The notes beneath the pieces were generated by a model that had not been told where the DNA came from, made no database searches, and was given only the letters and a program-made list of their open reading frames with translations. From positions 1,547,566 through 1,611,565 of the forward strand of contig OY970370.1 of the NCBI GenBank assembly GCA_963718745.1: a DNA stretch of 64,000 nucleotides, given 5' to 3'. The stretch comes from Candidatus Fermentibacterota bacterium. Lineage in GTDB: Bacteria; Fermentibacterota; Fermentibacteria; Fermentibacterales; Fermentibacteraceae. A program made the translations under genes and the position numbers. Positions 4,959 through 58,522 of this stretch are shown one piece after another (the stretch's first letter is position 1; each line of letters begins with the position of its first letter).

Positions 4959-5783
4959 CTAGCGGACTATCGCGAAAGTCGCCGAATCGAACGACTGCCC
5001 TGTGGATGCCGTGACCACATACGCTCCTGACGGGAGAGGGTTCCCGTCGTTGCCGCGGCCGTCGAAGTCGAAGTAAACCTCTTCTGTCGATGTCTGCACA
5101 CCATCGAGAGTTCGCACGCACCGACCCATGATGTCGATTACTTCGGCACCGACAGCTTCGGCGTCATCTCCACGGTAGCGGAAGACGAACGGGCCGGAGA
5201 TTGAGACCCTGGTTACACTCAGCCCGGCTTCGGAAGCAGGAAGAGGAATCCCGGCTGTAATCTCCGAGCCGTCGGAAAGGTTTTCAGGGAAGAACGGTCT
5301 GTACATGACGTCGTAGTTGGTGTGTCCGCTGCTGAGATAGGCCGCCCCTGCAGCGAAGAAATGCCCCGCCTCCGTGACACAGCCACCCATCTGATCGCAG
5401 GATGGGGCAGTTAATCCGAAGGAGCCCGTGTCGGCGCTTCCGACAAAGGAGTGAGTGAGTTCGAAGTCGTTGTTCAGCCTTCCGATCCAAATATACCATT
5501 CGTCTCCATCTCTTACCATGCCGGAGACCATGTAGCCCGCGGAGAACAGCTCGAAATCGTAGACTCTGATCCCATCGAAGGGATTCGGGGGATAGACTTT
5601 GTAATCCCTAAGGAAGTTCAGCGACTCGTCGAGGATAGTAATCGAGATGTATGCATCTGTATGCTGGAAGATGCCCTCCATGCTCTGAGTGGTGATCGGA
5701 TTGCCCATCACGACATAGCCGGGGGCTCCCGGAAGGGGAAATGATGTTCGATCTCCTGATACTGCTGACGATTGCGGCTTCAC
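4959..5783 (-). CDS. protein with T9SS/FlgD-like C-terminal sorting domain, possibly N-terminally truncated
   Basis: C-terminus EVYFDFDGRGNDGNPLPSGAYVVTASTGQSFDSATFAIVR resembles the Por-secretion C-terminal domain; no signal peptide, and the 5' end overlaps the divergent gene at 5741. Confidence 0.45.
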   Translation of the reverse strand: MKPQSSAVSGDRTSFPLPGAPGYVVMGNPITTQSMEGIFQHTDAYISITILDESLNFLRDYKVYPPNPFDGIRVYDFELFSAGYMVSGMVRDGDEWYIWIGRLNNDFELTHSFVGSADTGSFGLTAPSCDQMGGCVTEAGHFFAAGAAYLSSGHTNYDVMYRPFFPENLSDGSEITAGIPLPASEAGLSVTRVSISGPFVFRYRGDDAEAVGAEVIDIMGRCVRTLDGVQTSTEEVYFDFDGRGNDGNPLPSGAYVVTASTGQSFDSATFAIVR

Positions 5784-7354
5784 CGGTCAGGATTGCAGTC
5801 CTGGGTGACAGGACCGGGGGTCCGGACGACGAGGAATTCGAATCAGCCCTCGAGGCGGTCTCGATACTGGCTCCCGACCTGGTGATGAACGTGGGTGATC
5901 TCATCGACGGCTACACCGACGACACGGACGCCCTCGGCGGGCAGTGGGACCATGTCCTCGGCATGATCGACTCAACCCTGGGCGAACTCCCGTTCGTATT
6001 CGTCCCGGGCAATCACGACATCACCTACGACGAGGCCGAGGCCGTCTGGCTGGAGAGGACCGGGACAGGGCCAGACAGGACCGAATCGACCAGCGGTGTC
6101 GAGTTCATTGTCTGGGACACGTCCAGAGACGAGATCCTGGAGGCTGACGATCTGGACCGTCTCGCCGCCCTTCTCGAGGACGTCCGCCCCGGCGGTACAA
6201 CCATCCTCGCGACCCACAGGCCGTTCTGGATGATGTGGGAGACGGATCCGGAGATGGCTGCGAGGCTTCGCGCCATGGTCGCCGCAGCCGACGTGGAGGT
6301 AGTCATCGGGGGCCATATCCATACTTACGCGTGGGAGCAGGTCGACGGGGTCCACTACATTACGATGGGGACATCCGGAGGCGATTACGGGCAGGAGGAC
6401 ATCCAGGCGGGGTGCTTCCCCCAGGTGGGCTGGCTGACGCTGGACGGCGACGAAGCGGCATTCGCCCTCCTGGACCCCAGGTCGGTCCACCCTCTCGATC
6501 TCAACACTGTCATCGAGGAGACCCTGCTCTATCTCGCTACCACAAGGCTGCTCTCGCTCAGGCCTCTCGAGGATGCGCTCGAATCCGCCTCACTCACGGT
6601 GGAATCGATCGAGGACGTGGAGCGCACGGTCGGGATCGCGATCGACCCCGGTTGCTGGGGCTTCGATCCCGAGAGCGTTTCGGTGCTTCTCCCCCCCGGC
6701 GGTCAGGTGCCGGTGCACTTGAGCCAGAATCCGTCCGGAGCTGTCTTCCCCCTCCCCGTGCTGCACGTGAGCATTCCCTACGGTGACAGGGGCAAGATTG
6801 CGGAGTTCGATACGTGCTGGCCTGCGCTGAGGTCGATCGATGCTCCACGGGGCGTTGTGGATATCGACGGTACTGCTTTCCCGACCGAATACCCGGGTCC
6901 GGCCGAGACGCTGTTCGCAGGAGACGGCGGCATGCCGGCGCAGAACGGTCCAATGGAGGTCCTCATAGCCGATTCGGACGGCATGCTCTGCTTCCAGTCC
7001 AGGATGGGCCTGAGCCCGGACGGTCTGCTGGAGGACGAGTCGTTCGCGGTGGTCCTGTTTGCGGACGGCCTCTTCTGGAGGGTCAAGGTCTTCCCGGACG
7101 GCGGCGTCGATGCGATCTGCTACTCCGATGAAGGCATCGAGGAGTGGACGGAAGGATGGCAGGCCGTCTCGACAGTTTCGGAAGGCGGCTGGGAGGCCGA
7201 GATCGGGATCGACCCCGCTGCCGTCGGAGCTTCGGAGCCGGAGCTGCGCACGCACATCTACCGCCTGTCGACCAATGGGTACGCCACCTGGTCGTGGCCC
7301 CTCGAGTTCGACATGGAGGCTATGGGTCTCGTCTGCACGGAGCCGGGGATCTGA
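5741..7354 (+). CDS. metallophosphoesterase (calcineurin-like) family protein with C-terminal extension
   Basis: Motifs VLGDRTGG, GNHD, GGHIHTY; hydrophobic N-terminus. Confidence 0.75.
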   Translation: MMFDLLILLTIAASPVRIAVLGDRTGGPDDEEFESALEAVSILAPDLVMNVGDLIDGYTDDTDALGGQWDHVLGMIDSTLGELPFVFVPGNHDITYDEAEAVWLERTGTGPDRTESTSGVEFIVWDTSRDEILEADDLDRLAALLEDVRPGGTTILATHRPFWMMWETDPEMAARLRAMVAAADVEVVIGGHIHTYAWEQVDGVHYITMGTSGGDYGQEDIQAGCFPQVGWLTLDGDEAAFALLDPRSVHPLDLNTVIEETLLYLATTRLLSLRPLEDALESASLTVESIEDVERTVGIAIDPGCWGFDPESVSVLLPPGGQVPVHLSQNPSGAVFPLPVLHVSIPYGDRGKIAEFDTCWPALRSIDAPRGVVDIDGTAFPTEYPGPAETLFAGDGGMPAQNGPMEVLIADSDGMLCFQSRMGLSPDGLLEDESFAVVLFADGLFWRVKVFPDGGVDAICYSDEGIEEWTEGWQAVSTVSEGGWEAEIGIDPAAVGASEPELRTHIYRLSTNGYATWSWPLEFDMEAMGLVCTEPGI

Positions 7355-8792: not shown

Positions 8793-8938
8793 GTCTACCC
8801 CTCTCCGACGGTTCCAGGTGAAGGATTTGCATGAATCCGCTCTTTCACATACCGGATGACAGGAGAGGGTATTCCCTCTTCCAGGCTCCTCCGGGATCAC
8901 CTGTGTCGTTTCACCAGAGCAGCACTGATCAGCCTTCA

Positions 8939-9253
8939 TCAAGACCCGAGTGCGGCGAGCATGGCCCGCCTGTACCCGTCGAAGGCCTCTCTGCCGGCCG
9001 TGGTCAGCCTGTACATGGTCCGCGGCCTCCGGTCCACGAACTCCTTCTTCTCCTCGACGTAGCCGGCGCCAGCGAGCCTGCTCATGTGCGACGACAGGTT
9101 GCCGTTCGTGAGGCCGGTCCTGTTCAGCAGGAAAACGAAATCGGCGCTGTCGACCACATAGAGATTCGCCATGATGGTCAGGCGAGCGGGTTCGTGTATC
9201 AGCCTGTCGATCCCGGGAAGACCCGCTTCATCCTGTGCGGCTCCCGGGACCAT
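8939..9253 (-). CDS. winged-helix transcriptional regulator (ArsR/HTH_34-like)
   Basis: Start at MVPGAAQ overlaps the stop of the upstream membrane gene; wHTH signature HEPARLTIMANL...GNLSSHMSRLAGAGYVEEKKEF...RPRTMYRLTTAGREAF. Confidence 0.6.
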   Translation of the reverse strand: MVPGAAQDEAGLPGIDRLIHEPARLTIMANLYVVDSADFVFLLNRTGLTNGNLSSHMSRLAGAGYVEEKKEFVDRRPRTMYRLTTAGREAFDGYRRAMLAALGS

Positions 9254-9840
9254 CACGCAGCCTCGACCTTCTGCACCGGGTTCCGCCGGACGAATCTCAC
9301 CAGGAGCAGGACGCCGACAACGAATATCGGCGCCCCTGTGGCCATGACGGGCCAGGTGTGGGGCTGGCCGAAGAACTGCGCGCCTGCGAAGTCGAGCACG
9401 GCCATGATTGCATAGACGTAGAACCTGCCTGCGGACTTTGCCCATGCGACCGCCGCCATGCTGACCGCCACGAAAAGGCCGAGCACTAGGGTCGCGTGAT
9501 TCGATACGGCTCCCAGCCAGGCAACAGGCTTGTCCGCGAAGAACAGAGCAAGGCCCAGGGGGATCGGCAGCAGGACGAGTAGCGCGATGAGCAGCACGCC
9601 CGTCCTCTCGCGGGCCCTGCGGTCCGCCGCGAACCTCACCCTTCCGACCCTGGGGGTCACGACGAACTTCCTGAGCAGTACGGCCAGAAGCAGGCAGTAT
9701 GTCGGGACGAGATAGGCTCCGACGGTGGCAAGGAGCCCGTACCCCAGCAGGCCTGCTCCGACCACGACGTCGAGTAACCCGCTCTCGCTCCTGACGGCAT
9801 AAGCCCTGCTCTCTATCTCCTTCAGATCAAGCGCATCCAT
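9253..9840 (-). CDS. hypothetical integral membrane protein
   Basis: ORF with multiple hydrophobic helices; first gene of a three-gene unit with the wHTH regulator. Confidence 0.6.
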   Translation of the reverse strand: MDALDLKEIESRAYAVRSESGLLDVVVGAGLLGYGLLATVGAYLVPTYCLLLAVLLRKFVVTPRVGRVRFAADRRARERTGVLLIALLVLLPIPLGLALFFADKPVAWLGAVSNHATLVLGLFVAVSMAAVAWAKSAGRFYVYAIMAVLDFAGAQFFGQPHTWPVMATGAPIFVVGVLLLVRFVRRNPVQKVEAA

Positions 9841-9850
9841 CTCCTACCCT

Positions 9851-9885
9851 CCGCAGATTAATTTGTAATGCAAACCGATCTGCGG
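9851..9885. promoter_or_regulatory. inverted repeat CCGCAGAT-N19-ATCTGCGG upstream of membrane/wHTH operon
   Basis: Perfect 8-bp arms 11 nt upstream of the start at 9840; candidate operator. Confidence 0.3.
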
Positions 9886-10185
9886 AAGTATATCAACTAC
9901 CCCGGGAGTGTCAAGGCTGCCCCGGTCCGGTTGCCTTTTGCTTGTCTCAATCCAAAGGCGTGAACCTTATCGTCCACGTGCCGATGGCGGTCTCGTCGTC
10001 GTATGGAAGAAGGATCTCGCAGGGCTCCCCCTCCCCCAGTTTCGAGAGGGGGACCGGAAAGACCACCACGCCGCTCTCGATGGAGGTTTCAGCGAAGTCG
10101 GGATACTGCCACTGCAGCTCCGGCCCCAATTTGACACGGATCCGCACCGTCCTGATTTTCGACAGGAGATGCAATCAGGACCACT

Positions 10186-55186: not shown

Positions 55187-55296
55187 TATGACTCCATGCC
55201 GGTGATATCTCTGCCCGGGGCGCGCCGCTGTCAAGAATGACGCTTGCAGGACGGGGCGGCTGCTGTCATCTTCGGGTGATGACGGAGGTGTGGAGG

Positions 55297-56268
55297 ATGT
55301 TTGGACGCCGATTGTCCGGGAGTGTCGCACTTTGCGCCCTTTCCGCCGCCTGCCTCTCGTGCGGGGGCGGGGAGGTAAGGGAACCCCACCTGAGGGGCGC
55401 AATCACTGTCGACGGGATCGAGTTCGGTCTCGGAGGCGCGAGGGGTACCGTTCTGAACACGCCCCGGACGGTCTACTGGGCGGGGGTGGCGATGCCGGCC
55501 CTGGTCCGTATCGACCTGTACGGGATGGACGTGGATGTGGACGAGATGGGGCTTCCCGCGAACGACGCCTTCCCGGCGCTGACCCTGATGATACCGGCCG
55601 GACCGGATGGCGACTTCTACGCCGGGGAGGATGCGATCCCGGCATCCATGGAGATGCAGCTCGGGGGCGTCCGGACGTTCATCCCCGAGTCCCTGCTGAT
55701 AAACTGTACCGTCAGCCTGTCCGCGAGCCCGCTGGACACCTCGATAGTCGATCTCGGCATGTACTTCGCCTTCGACAGGGGAGATTCGTTCTACGAGGGC
55801 GAGTACGACTGCCCTGTCTGCTTCCCGGGCGTCCCCGCCTCGGAGTCGCCCCCTGCGTATCCGTCGCATCAGCTTCCGGACTCGCTGTTCTTCACGGCGG
55901 CCAGCGACACTCTGCGCCCCATGTTCTATGCCGCGATGGAGGAGCAGTACGCCGGGAAGGACTGCTTTTCGGTGTATGCCTTCACCGAGCCCTATACCGG
56001 CTCGGTCCCGTCCAAGGCCGGTCAGACATGCCTGCTGTTCAGGATACCCGCCGACCGTGCCGACGGGGAGCCGGTTCCCACGTTCGTAGAGGCCTGTGTG
56101 ATATCGCAGGGGGATACCCTCGGGCTCTCCGCGGGCTATGCCTTCTGCTGGGCCACGGGGCGGGTCGAGGGCTCGGTTCTCGAGGGTTCGGTCCAGTTCC
56201 AGGGGAACGGCAGCGAACAGGCGACCGGCTTCATGGGAGGCGGGCCCTACACCGCACCGATCAAGTAG
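55297..56268 (+). CDS. hypothetical lipoprotein
   Basis: Internal start MFGRRLSGSVALCALSAACLSCGGG with GGAGG RBS. Confidence 0.6.
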   Translation: MFGRRLSGSVALCALSAACLSCGGGEVREPHLRGAITVDGIEFGLGGARGTVLNTPRTVYWAGVAMPALVRIDLYGMDVDVDEMGLPANDAFPALTLMIPAGPDGDFYAGEDAIPASMEMQLGGVRTFIPESLLINCTVSLSASPLDTSIVDLGMYFAFDRGDSFYEGEYDCPVCFPGVPASESPPAYPSHQLPDSLFFTAASDTLRPMFYAAMEEQYAGKDCFSVYAFTEPYTGSVPSKAGQTCLLFRIPADRADGEPVPTFVEACVISQGDTLGLSAGYAFCWATGRVEGSVLEGSVQFQGNGSEQATGFMGGGPYTAPIK

Positions 56269-56896
56269 ACATCGGCTCCGGCGGATCCTCCAGGGTCCTG
56301 AGTACGGCGACCACCTTTCCCAGGACCTTCAGCGGCTCCCCTCCCGGGGAGAATGTCATGACCTGGAATGCGGGATTGGCCGGGACAAGCTCGATGACGT
56401 CCGGCGAGACGCGGTGGAAGTGCTTTACCGTGGCCTCGTCACCAACCAGGACTACGGCCGTCTCGTCCTGACGGACGAAAGGCTGCGACCGCACTAGGAC
56501 AAGGTCCCCGTCCAGGATGCCGTCGTCCTTCATGCTGTCGCCCTTCACGCGAAGGAAGAAGTGGTTCTCGGCCGGGTAGCCAGGCAGTTCGATCCACCCC
56601 GTGATGTTCTCCTGCGCGAGGATCGGCTTTCCCGCCGCCACCTGGCCGATCACCGGGAGCCCGCGGCCCCCGGGTGCGCCGAGGGGTGCACCGCGAACAG
56701 AGATGGCTCGGGCGGCGCGCTCAGACCTGCGGAGGTATCCGCGGGCGACGAGCCAGTCCAGATGGTCTTTTACGCTTTTAGTGCTCTTGAGGCCGACGGC
56801 GGAGGCTATCTCGCGGATGCTGGGGGGGTATCCGTTGCGCTCGTCGAACGAACGGACGAACTCGAGGATCCTCTTGTTCCTGTCGGTGAGTTCCAT
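56261..56896 (-). CDS. lexA: LexA repressor
   Basis: N-terminal wHTH; cleavage-site region; S24 peptidase motifs GDSM and Lys-containing C-terminal domain. Confidence 0.9.
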   Translation of the reverse strand: MELTDRNKRILEFVRSFDERNGYPPSIREIASAVGLKSTKSVKDHLDWLVARGYLRRSERAARAISVRGAPLGAPGGRGLPVIGQVAAGKPILAQENITGWIELPGYPAENHFFLRVKGDSMKDDGILDGDLVLVRSQPFVRQDETAVVLVGDEATVKHFHRVSPDVIELVPANPAFQVMTFSPGGEPLKVLGKVVAVLRTLEDPPEPMST

Positions 56897-56901
56897 GCAC
56901 G

Positions 56902-56919
56902 AAACATACACAGATGTTT
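56902..56919. promoter_or_regulatory. candidate SOS box AAACAT-N6-ATGTTT upstream of lexA
   Basis: Perfect inverted hexamers 6-24 nt upstream of the lexA start codon. Confidence 0.4.
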
Positions 56920-56987
56920 GTATCGGTCAAGTGACCTGCGGCTGCTGGAACCCCGGCTCGATGTCCCGGCTCCGCCGGGTGCCGACG

Positions 56988-57416
56988 TCAGTCCGGCAGG
57001 ATGTCGCTGAAGAAGACTACGTAGGCGGCTATCCTCACCAGCATCTGCTCGTCGGAGCCGTCGGTGTACAGCAGCGTGCTGAAGCTGCGGTCCTCGACGG
57101 TCCCGTCGCTCGATATCGTGATCAGGCAGCTGAAGGACGTGTCAGTCAGCCTTCCGTCATCCTCGAGGTGGTACAGGGTGTTGAAGCTCGCCCCCTCGAT
57201 CCGGCCGTCCCGGATGTAGCCGAGCGTGCGGAAGGACGAGTCCTCGACCCTGGAGTCGTCGCGGATGTACCCCAGCGTGCTGAAGGAGGAATCCTCGATG
57301 CGGCCGTCTTCCCTTATGTAAGCGAGTGTGGAGAAGCTGTCGTCCTCGAGGCGGAGATCACCGGCGGATGCGGAGGTGACCGTCATCATGATAGCAAAAA
57401 ACAGCAGGTTCCTCAT
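56988..57416 (-). CDS. secreted tandem-repeat protein (six ~17-aa SFSTLGYIRxDGRxEDS units)
   Basis: Signal peptide MRNLLFFAIMMTVTSASA; repeats visible directly in the translation. Confidence 0.55.
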   Translation of the reverse strand: MRNLLFFAIMMTVTSASAGDLRLEDDSFSTLAYIREDGRIEDSSFSTLGYIRDDSRVEDSSFRTLGYIRDGRIEGASFNTLYHLEDDGRLTDTSFSCLITISSDGTVEDRSFSTLLYTDGSDEQMLVRIAAYVVFFSDILPD

Positions 57417-57451
57417 GTACGTTGGAACCTCCTTTCAGGACTCATAAAGTA

Positions 57452-58522
57452 ATGTACCCGACAGCGGTGTCAATGGCGGCGCTGCTGGCCTCGCTCCTGG
57501 ACCCGGTCCCGCTGGACATAAACACCGCATCTCTGCGCGACCTGGAGTCGCTCCCGGGGATCGGCCCGGAAAGGGCGGCGGCGATCGTCTCCTTCCGCGA
57601 ATCGTGCGGTCCCGTCCTCGAGCTTTCGGACCTGCTCGGGGTCCCGGGCATCGGCCCGGAGACCCTGGAGGAGCTCGGGCTGCTCATGACGATAGACGAC
57701 AGGCTCGAGCTCCCGGTGGACACCACCCACTGGCTGCCCGTGTTGGACAGCATCTCCGATCCAGTCCTCACGATCGTCTCTATCGACATAGGCGAGGGCG
57801 ACGCGACCCTCGTCCGGTGCGCCGGAGGAGGAACGGTCCTGATCGACGGCGGCCCCGACGAGGGAGGGCCGATCGTGCCCGCGGTCGTCACCCGCCTGCG
57901 GAGCCTGGACATCGACAGCCTGGACGCGGTCGTGATCACCCATCCGCACGACGACCACATCGGAGGCCTGGTCGAGGTCGTACGACGGCTCCACGTCGGC
58001 TGCGTCTATGATCCCGGAACGGCATGCACCTCGCCCGTCTACGAGGACCTTCTGCTCGCCGTCGAGGCCTCCGGGGCAGGCTACAGGCTCCTGGAGGAGG
58101 GCATGGTCCTGGACCTCGGGGTCGCCTCGATCACGGTAGTCGACGCCGGGGACTCCCTGGCGGCGGACATGAACGAGAGCTCGGCCGTCATGCTGGTTTC
58201 CTGCGGGCACTTCAGGGCGCTGCTCGCCGGAGACATCTCGGAGGCCTCCGAGGTCCGCCTGACACCGGAAATGCCGCCTGTGAACTTCATGGTCGCGCCC
58301 CACCACGGCAGCAACACCTCGGCCTTCGAGCCCTTCCTCAGGAGGCTCAGGCCCCAGATCGTCGCCGTCAGCGCGGGACGGGACAACCCGTTCGGCCACC
58401 CGCACATGTCGGTGATGGAGAAGTATCGCGGTCTGGGAGCCGTTTTGTTGCGAACCGACAGGTCCGGGACTATTTTCGTCGAGACCGATGGGGAGTCCGT
58501 CTCGATCCGGACATCGATGTAA
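57452..58522 (+). CDS. ComEA-like helix-hairpin-helix domain fused to MBL-fold (ComEC-type) metallo-hydrolase
   Basis: HhH motifs (LESLPGIGPERAAAIV, LLGVPGIGPETLEEL); MBL motif VITHPHDDHIGG; a TTG at 57422 is an alternative start. Confidence 0.75.
   Translation: MYPTAVSMAALLASLLDPVPLDINTASLRDLESLPGIGPERAAAIVSFRESCGPVLELSDLLGVPGIGPETLEELGLLMTIDDRLELPVDTTHWLPVLDSISDPVLTIVSIDIGEGDATLVRCAGGGTVLIDGGPDEGGPIVPAVVTRLRSLDIDSLDAVVITHPHDDHIGGLVEVVRRLHVGCVYDPGTACTSPVYEDLLLAVEASGAGYRLLEEGMVLDLGVASITVVDAGDSLAADMNESSAVMLVSCGHFRALLAGDISEASEVRLTPEMPPVNFMVAPHHGSNTSAFEPFLRRLRPQIVAVSAGRDNPFGHPHMSVMEKYRGLGAVLLRTDRSGTIFVETDGESVSIRTSM

Follow-up and report, generated by a model that had tools for sequence, protein, structure and literature searches.

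The Cheo box of Bacillus subtilis is exemplified by CGAACATATGTTCG, and the recognition-helix region of Bacillus LexA reads SSSTVHGH. LexA boxes with longer spacers are represented by CTGT-N8-ACAG in E. coli and GGTT-N10-AACC in Geobacter. GAAC-N4-GTTC is the motif of Firmicutes and Actinobacteria, with variants in other phyla (PMC4951493). The LexA box of Verrucomicrobia, TGTTC-N4-GAACA, was defined largely by comparative genomics of the lexA, recA and imuA promoters with validation by EMSA and at several genes of the regulon (PMC4951493). In the LexA-like regulators of Bacteroidetes, an altered spacer length abolishes binding (PMC8565304). A literature search found no published description of the SOS system in Candidatus Fermentibacterota, the source lineage of the 64-kb stretch of DNA analysed here (the window).

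A minus-strand gene of the window (56261..56896, ATG at 56896 and stop at 56261) encodes a protein of 211 aa, in which Pfam searches identified an N-terminal winged-helix domain (PF01726, LexA_DNA_bind, residues 2-64, E=1.1e-19) and a C-terminal S24 peptidase domain (PF00717, Peptidase_S24, residues 81-196). The protein scores 176.6 bits against TIGR00498 in NCBIfam, above the curated equivalog cutoff of 110.95, and the Ala88-Gly89 cleavage site, Ser121 (in GDSM) and Lys158 are invariant in a 34-sequence LexA alignment (A1). The predicted product is confirmed by these matches as a canonical LexA with a wHTH and an S24 peptidase domain, and it shares 40-46% identity with LexA proteins from Actinobacteria and Clostridia, the promoters of which have the canonical box. 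Translation starts at ATG 56896 (MELTDRNK...). GTG 56911, the start of the longest ORF, was rejected because the relatives likewise begin with MELTD and in one of them, L084, a TGA in the same frame precedes the lexA ATG by 6 nt; this GTG is also not conserved, as L104 has GTA in its place.

The palindrome AAACAT-N6-ATGTTT (AAACATACACAGATGTTT, 56902..56919, read on the plus strand) lies 5 nt upstream of the lexA ATG, where a reading made from the letters of the window alone (the sequence-only reading) had placed it and proposed it as a candidate SOS box of divergent type, with Gram-positive-like half-sites and a longer spacer. It is the sole match in the 64-kb window, even when up to two mismatches are allowed. 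Since 0.15 matches are expected by chance per window and at least one match at up to two mismatches arose in 12 of 100 window shuffles, the palindrome is unusual but by itself not compelling.

Comparison was made across 47 non-identical Fermentibacteria lexA promoters (the window and 46 relatives), drawn from loci L001-L002, L081-L100 and 49 further loci, whose LexA proteins range down to ~45-50% identity with the window LexA and whose flanking sequences are unrelated. The single element shared by these promoters is the 12-mer AAACA-NN-TGT-N-T, which precedes the conserved LT codons (those for residues 3 and 4 of the window LexA) by 27-45 nt and keeps its register in 47/47. AACA is present in all 47 promoters, T8 and G9 in 46 each, T12 in 44 and T10 in 43. 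The abutting palindrome AAACAT/ATGTTT (AAACATATGTTT) was recovered from 45/47 promoters at up to two mismatches, eight of the matches being perfect; the two 6-mers adjoin in this conserved dyad, and its inverted 4-bp arms are exactly 4 bp apart (AAAC-N4-GTNT). Unbiased counts over the lexA promoters returned AAACATAT, TAAACATA and AACATATG as the top 8-mers and ACAT-N0 (26), AACA-N2 (16) and AAAC-N4 (12) as the top dyads, all in one register, with no second conserved dyad.

The predicted LexA operator of the window is the corresponding 12-mer AAACATCTGTGT at 56908..56919 on the minus strand. It is the top match in the window to a PSSM of the lexA box (21.5-21.7 bits), the next-best being a weak site at 5650-5663 (13 bits, inside or beside a minus-strand ORF). 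A LexA operator is very probably present at the coordinates of the palindrome, which upholds one part of the sequence-only reading, although the box would be the 12-mer and not the palindrome with the 6-bp spacer. The description of AAACAT/ATGTTT as Gram-positive-like half-sites also holds, and they match the inferred consensus half-sites of the phylum. The link of the 12-mer to LexA is drawn from its position, its dyad symmetry, its similarity to the known box of LexA homologues and its conservation at this one gene, lexA. AAAC-N4-GT(W)T, with the consensus given above, emerges for Candidatus Fermentibacterota as a candidate LexA motif with good support. The pattern RAACANNTGTNY matches the window once, at the operator, with no second match; with 0.52 matches expected by chance, the 12-mer pattern is not statistically remarkable from the window alone.

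Positive-control lexA promoters from other phyla were fetched in the same way as the Fermentibacteria set, through a genome-contig search with full-length LexA that gave 80 loci, only two of them from Fermentibacteria. These promoters carry CGAAC-N4-GTTCG, the core of which is perfect in 41/77, and AAAC-N4-GTTT was seen in a few Clostridia. Like the Cheo box GAAC-N4-GTTC, the Fermentibacteria box is a dyad of 12 bp, its two 4-bp arms separated by 4 bp; it prefers a central ACAT/ATGT, lies over the lexA core promoter and would be bound by a canonical LexA. Unlike the Cheo box, its left arm starts with A rather than G (44/47, followed by an invariant AAC) and the right arm has GT[A/T/G]T where the Cheo box has GTTC, a terminal C occurring in 3/47 promoters; in the subclade of the window this arm reads GTGT or GTAT, and the window itself has AAAC...GTGT. 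The recognition-helix region of the Fermentibacteria LexA, STK[SG]VKDH, also differs from that of Bacillus. The Verrucomicrobia box is similar in belonging to a non-proteobacterial phylum and in being a dyad that has a 4-bp spacer and is akin to the Gram-positive motif, but its arms are the mirror image (TGTTC...GAACA), whereas the Fermentibacteria box, derived from promoter sequences, has the Gram-positive orientation. The operator may therefore be described as a putative variant of the Firmicutes/Actinobacteria box with arms other than the canonical GAAC/GTTC.

A promoter scan of the region upstream of lexA gave one site against 0.2 expected, TTGACC-16-TATGTT at 56930..56903, comprising a -35 hexamer TTGACC at 56925..56930 and a -10 hexamer TATGTT at 56903..56908, both on the minus strand. 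TATGTT is a weak -10 (4/6) and takes in the distal arm of the palindrome minus base 56902. The operator sits between the two hexamers and shares one base with the -10. In 45/47 related promoters, TTGAC precedes the box. The distance from the box to the -35 varies from 1 to 25 nt; some boxes fall in the spacer, some cover the -10 and some come immediately after a TATAGT -10, in the relatives always within the -35..+15 region that overlaps the core promoter. Because its placement shifts relative to the -35 and is always over the core promoter, the box behaves as an independent operator. These observations bear on the possibility that the 12-mer is a real regulatory element recognised by some other factor, or a promoter element peculiar to this lineage, with LexA binding elsewhere or lexA not being autoregulated. 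In its favour, all of the evidence comes from promoters of one gene family; however, the dyad shares its geometry and a near-identical sequence with the operator of homologous LexA proteins, its 24-nt shift against the -35 and -10 argues that it does not belong to the core promoter as such, the other sampled phyla show lexA autoregulation by way of a box of this kind, and the Fermentibacteria promoters hold no other conserved dyad. We consider this explanation unlikely.

The explanation that we favour, and regard as probable, is an autoregulated lexA promoter with a 12-bp operator, in which the distal arm of the palindrome is the -10 plus one unconstrained base. A LexA dimer would bind the 12-mer (56908-56919); because the operator fills the spacer between the -35 and the -10 and overlaps the latter by one base, bound LexA would exclude RNA polymerase. 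Upon DNA damage, RecA-stimulated self-cleavage at Ala88-Gly89, with Ser121 and Lys158 as the catalytic residues, would release the repression. On its sequence, the gene would be an ordinary autoregulated lexA.

The gap between the -10 and the ATG is exactly 6 nt (56897-56902) and contains no Shine-Dalgarno (SD) sequence, and TATGTT 6 nt before the ATG is invariant across the subclade (L081, L084 and L101-L106). Given this short gap and the absence of an SD sequence, the lexA mRNA of the subclade is predicted to be leaderless, with the ATG (56894..56896, minus strand) as the putative transcription start. A switch of lexA from SD-led to leaderless within one subclade would be a small and clean example of promoter and operator remodelling. 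It is conceivable, though quite improbable, that the right half-site of the LexA box was duplicated 6 bp downstream in this subclade (CTGTGT / ATGTTT) and that the copy was recruited as the -10 of the newly leaderless promoter. If so, one sequence would serve sigma-70 and, potentially, LexA, which could then bind in either of two registers or touch the -10 itself, and the autoregulatory switch would be unusually tight or bistable.

Recognition by LexA of the full 18-bp AAACAT-N6-ATGTTT, with Gram-positive-type half-sites 6 bp apart as in a divergent SOS box, appears very unlikely. The palindrome is a perfect 6+6 dyad unique in the window, its AACA-N8-TGTT is kept in the window and its five closest relatives, and its distal arm ATGTTT fits the consensus half-site perfectly, better than the proximal CTGTGT (4/6). 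Among the 47 promoters, however, it is perfect in the window only, and at up to two mismatches it occurs in 7/47, namely the subclade of the window and one unrelated promoter (L125). Its arms drop to 4-5/6 in the nearest relatives, and in the close relative L084 (AAACACCTGTATGTTT) its spacer is 2 nt shorter although the 12-mer is retained. The AACA-N8 dyad occurs in only six promoters, and the N6 dyad is absent from ~39 others whose LexA has the same recognition-helix segment. Conservation of AAACAT-N6-ATGTTT at the orthologous promoters was therefore not found in this set, and phylogenetic footprinting instead revealed a different conserved palindrome upstream of the lexA orthologues, one of the outcomes that the sequence-only reading had itself named as refuting its proposal. 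The -10 hexamer fully accounts for the distal arm: TATGTT is invariant in the subclade, whereas the following base, critical for the palindrome, is T, C or A, which suggests that the distal arm is the -10 plus one variable base and not a LexA half-site. The loss of binding by the Bacteroidetes LexA-like regulators upon a change of dyad spacing (PMC8565304) also argues against an 18-bp site. AACA-N8-TGTT of the window falls superficially in the spacing class of the E. coli box, but unlike in the long-spacer boxes its spacing is not conserved in the relatives, its arms are of the Gram-positive type and its distal arm is the -10.

Because the conserved dyad has canonical geometry and the distal arm coincides with the -10, the claim of a divergent box with a longer spacer is unsupported. 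The outcome is chiefly a correction, in that the apparent long-spacer SOS box is best read as a canonical-geometry operator fused to a -10 element, and it therefore gives no evidence for a new mode of LexA recognition. That the palindrome is a functionless product of chance, as the matches in shuffled windows might allow, is hardly credible given that neither the left arm nor the inner TGT varies across the phylum at the same promoter and that the right arm is the predicted -10, conserved in the subclade.

Other SOS genes and sites were sought in the window and in the flanks of the relatives. Pfam analysis of the 20 largest other ORFs of the window detected no recA, uvrABD, dinB, recN or ruv. 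The flanks of the relatives (751 kb, 72 loci) were scanned with the lexA-box PSSM, and all matches of at least 17.5 bits were lexA promoters; the best non-lexA matches were weak or inside coding ORFs (L128 4335, L140 4808 and 18328, L123 2910 and L088 15425). A tblastn search of the same 751 kb with E. coli RecA, UvrA, UvrB, DinB, RuvB and SSB queries gave no hits. A further palindrome, GAACTCGAGGATCCTCTTGTTC at 56858-56879, was set aside as a chance occurrence, as it falls within lexA codons and lacks conservation in L081. The 12-bp motif of the lexA promoters is a modest novelty, as the first inferred LexA box for the candidate phylum Fermentibacterota; it supports a wide distribution and a probably ancestral status of the Gram-positive-type motif, and the 16-bp PSSM is ready for regulon reconstruction in MAGs of the FCB group.

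The neighbouring genes are as the sequence-only reading described them, a tandem-repeat protein that is probably secreted and a fusion of a ComEA-type HhH domain with a ComEC-type MBL domain, as evidenced in Pfam and NCBIfam searches. The fusion gene (57452..58522, plus strand; Pfam HHH_3 and Lactamase_B) has its longest ORF from TTG 57422 and a likely start at ATG 57452. Residues 114-349 of its product align only to positions 439-663 of the 663 in TIGR00361 (ComEC), and the score of 104.9 bits falls short of the cutoff of 190.05; the ComEA HhH repeat is matched by residues 31-85, again below the family cutoff. With this partial and sub-cutoff match, its assignment as a full-length ComEC/Rec2 was rejected. 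Like ComEC/Rec2 and ComEA, the protein has a C-terminal-type MBL domain and an HhH DNA-binding domain; unlike ComEC, it lacks both an OB-fold/DUF4131 and a competence membrane-channel domain, and would be a soluble or anchored fusion of 356-366 aa, with orthologues of 352-366 aa occupying the equivalent place in relatives. LexA control of the neighbouring genes was rejected as unsupported, since the divergent region between the fusion gene and the repeat-protein gene has no box except in a single lineage (L096), where 7802-7815 matches with two mismatches. The repeat-protein gene (56988..57416, minus strand) is found upstream of lexA, shares its strand and has an SD sequence of its own. It encodes a small 5-fold beta-flower repeat protein of 142 aa (PF21785, Bflower_2, 72 bits, E=3.8e-20), which has a hydrophobic N-terminus and is probably secreted. 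The gene contains a 51-bp tandem repeat in 2.3 copies, and its synteny is retained phylum-wide.

lexA (56261-56896, minus strand) encodes a 211-aa protein with Pfam LexA_DNA_bind (residues 2-64) and Peptidase_S24 (81-196) domains, scoring 176.6 bits against the NCBIfam equivalog TIGR00498 (cutoff 110.95). Alignment with 33 relatives showed that the A88-G89 cleavage site, Ser121 (GDSM) and Lys158 are invariant, and that the MELTD start is common to the closest relatives. Upstream on the same strand lies a gene for a 142-aa protein (56988-57416; Pfam Bflower_2, 5-fold beta-flower) with a hydrophobic N-terminus and 2.3 copies of a 51-bp repeat within the gene. Divergent from it is a gene (57422/57452-58522, 356-366 aa) that fuses a ComEA-type HhH domain (HHH_3) to an MBL domain, the latter aligning only to the C-terminal part (439-663) of the ComEC model with a score below the family cutoff. 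The Pfam and NCBIfam matches and the 51-bp repeat bear out the sequence-only reading, which had described lexA, a tandem-repeat protein and a ComEA-HhH/MBL fusion. The nearest LexA proteins are metagenomic (97% to about 45% identity), the named sources being Candidatus Fermentibacteria or Aegiribacteria of the FCB group. The order HhH-MBL <- -> Bflower -> lexA of the window (56261-58522) recurs in every longer contig fetched from relatives (L081, L084, L088, L091, L094, L096 and L099), down to about 50% LexA identity; in L096 it is interrupted by a radical-SAM gene between Bflower and lexA. Two ABC permease genes after HhH-MBL are part of this phylum-wide conserved order. A 343-aa plus-strand ORF with a lipoprotein-like N-terminus (55237-56268) is convergent with lexA, with an 8-nt overlap at the 3' end of lexA; it gave no Pfam or NCBIfam match, and orthologues of 320-331 aa occupy the same place in relatives.

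The inverted repeat AAACAT-N6-ATGTTT, which had been proposed as a divergent SOS box, is indeed present directly upstream of lexA (plus strand 56902-56919, AAACAT-ACACAG-ATGTTT), ending on the minus strand 5 nt before the lexA ATG, and is the single match in the window even at two mismatches. Phylogenetic footprinting of lexA promoters, however, revealed conservation of a different palindrome, in the register AAACAT-ATGTTT without spacer. A full-length LexA search of genome contigs returned mostly other phyla, and a metagenome query with the Fermentibacteria-specific recognition-helix segment (pattern STK[SG]VKDH) gave 49 loci, which together with contigs from exact look-up provided 47 non-identical lexA promoters with unrelated flanks, from GC-rich to AT-rich. 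The 12-mer AAACA-NN-TGT-N-T is present in 47/47, with A1 in 44 (G in 3), A2-A3-C4-A5 in all 47, T8 and G9 in 46 each, T10 in 43, T12 in 44 (C in 3) and A, T or G at position 11. Frequent forms are GTAAACATATGTATAG, TATAGTAAACATATGTTTTC, CTGAACAAATGTTTCA and CTAAACATATGTACAGG, of which TATAGTAAACATATGTTTTC includes the perfect spacerless palindrome; 45 of the 47 promoters lie within two mismatches of AAACATATGTTT, eight of them perfect. An unbiased count of 8-mers by promoter spread ranked AAACATAT, TAAACATA and AACATATG highest, and the commonest inverted dyads, ACAT-N0 (26 promoters), AACA-N2 (16) and AAAC-N4 (12), all share one register, whereas AACA-N8, the register of the N6 palindrome, was found in six promoters, all within the window's subclade.

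Across promoters the box is 1 to 25 nt 3' of the -35 hexamer, lying in the spacer (window, L088, L091), over the -10 (Aegiribacteria-like group) or just past a TATAGT -10 (another group). Because its placement relative to -35 and -10 shifts, yet the core promoter stays covered, the box behaves as a separate operator, as a repressor site does. In one lineage, L091-L093, Bflower and lexA are separated by an inserted IS200/IS605-type Y1 transposase gene (8870-9910); the lexA box there, CAAACATATATTTG, is kept, directly beside TTGACA. We consider it probable that lexA is negatively autoregulated: a LexA dimer would bind the canonical-geometry 12-mer between -35 and -10, RecA-stimulated LexA autocleavage would relieve the repression, and the distal arm of the N6 palindrome would be the -10 of a leaderless promoter. 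We infer LexA as the binding protein from the dyad symmetry of the 12-mer, its position, its near-identity to homologous LexA operators and its conservation at lexA promoters phylum-wide; that another factor binds it, or that it is itself a promoter element, a reading at odds with its shifting placement, seems unlikely.

The promoter scan of 56700-57600 gave one sigma-70-type site, TTGACC-16-TATGTT (56930..56903; 0.2 expected), in the lexA-strand arrangement TTGACC gatac AAACATCTGTGT ATGTTT cgtgc ATG. Its -10, TATGTT (56908-56903), is the distal arm shifted by one base. As exactly 6 nt separate this -10 from the ATG, with no Shine-Dalgarno sequence, the lexA mRNA of the window is predicted to be leaderless, with +1 at the A of ATG. 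All subclade members (L081-L083, L084-L087 and L101-L106) share the layout TTGAC[AC]-16/17-TATGTT-6 nt-ATG, and in L084 an in-frame TGA 6 nt 5' of the lexA ATG makes a longer ORF or leader-encoded start impossible. Leaderless lexA is predicted only for this subclade (window 56894-56908; L081-L087, L101-L106); in the rest of Fermentibacteria, lexA always has a GGAGG leader.

That the N6 palindrome is itself the operator is distinctly improbable: perfect in the window, it is perfect nowhere else. The five nearest relatives keep 4-5 of 6 bases in its arms (AAACAG...ATGTTC, ATGTTA or ATGTTT), L084 has the arms 2 nt closer together (AAACACCTGTATGTTT), and the remaining lineages lack the second arm, L088 for example having a TACATT -10. 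The letters invariant in the subclade are those of the TATGTT hexamer, and the base after it, which the palindrome would need as the partner of A1, varies between T, C and A, whereas the nine core positions of the canonical 12-mer are all kept in every such promoter, L084 included. Since this core is kept throughout and the second N6 arm is not, the predicted operator of the window is AAACATCTGTGT (56908-56919), whose right half is degenerate (CTGTGT versus ATGTTT); the perfect distal ATGTTT is accounted for by promoter function, and it may plausibly have arisen when the right half-site was duplicated as a 6-bp unit. The likeness of the half-sites to Gram-positive arms therefore stands, but the longer-spacer reading is not supported, given the canonical-geometry 12-mer shared by 47 promoters. 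Chance is scarcely credible as the source of the palindrome, which is real, but its position weighs more than the statistics, because chance predicts 0.15 matches per window and at least one turned up in 12 of 100 shuffles.

As a positive control, 77 lexA promoters were taken from the other-phylum loci of the full-length LexA search; in 41 the GAAC-N4-GTTC core is perfect (typically CGAACANNTGTTCG), most others are one mismatch off, and three Clostridia promoters have AAAC-N4-GTTT. GAAC-N4-GTTC, the Firmicutes/Actinobacteria motif, is considered the probable ancestral form and has variants in Cyanobacteria and Chloroflexi (PMC4951493); altered dyad spacing abolishes binding by LexA-type regulators (PMC8565304). 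Considering these control promoters and published facts, the Fermentibacteria element is a variant of the Gram-positive-type box rather than a new geometry; the inferred motif belongs to a well-known kind, and the flagged feature is ordinary. AAAC-N4-GT(W)T seems undescribed for Fermentibacterota, as full-text literature searches returned only unrelated papers for LexA in Fermentibacteria/Fermentibacterota and nothing on LexA-binding motifs in candidate phyla.

No second motif match was found in the window, and none of its 20 largest other ORFs is recA, uvrA/B/D, dinB, recN or ruv. When a PSSM derived from the lexA sites was run over 751 kb of Fermentibacteria loci, every match of at least 17.5 bits was a lexA promoter, the best others being weak or inside coding ORFs; tblastn with E. 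coli RecA, UvrA, UvrB, DinB, RuvB and SSB queries found none in these loci. The ComEA-MBL gene is tied to LexA by conserved neighbourhood alone, because the divergent region between HhH-MBL and Bflower carries no box except a two-mismatch site in one lineage. This site, TAAGCATACGTATA (L096 7802-7815, upstream of the Bflower gene; two mismatches from the common TAAACATATGTATA), may be a second, weak LexA site or have arisen by chance. At 5650-5663 there is a weak box-like sequence, CATACAGATGCATA (13 bits), followed about 80 nt downstream by a 537-aa Metallophos ORF (5741-7354); it is also inside a possible minus-strand ORF (4959-5783). The 22-bp near-palindrome GAACTCGAGGATCCTCTTGTTC in lexA codons 6-13 (56858-56879) probably arose by chance, as it is not conserved in L081.

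The Bflower_2 gene has a conserved hairpin at its 5' end (57406-57430, minus strand), in which AGGTTCC (57424-57430), from the 3' portion of the Shine-Dalgarno region, pairs with GGAACCT of codons 2-4 (57406-57412) and the loop contains the ATG. For eight lineages RNAalifold gave nine pairs, two with compensatory CG->UA changes, and a rare AGG Arg codon is kept there in a high-GC genome; the hairpin may serve translational control.
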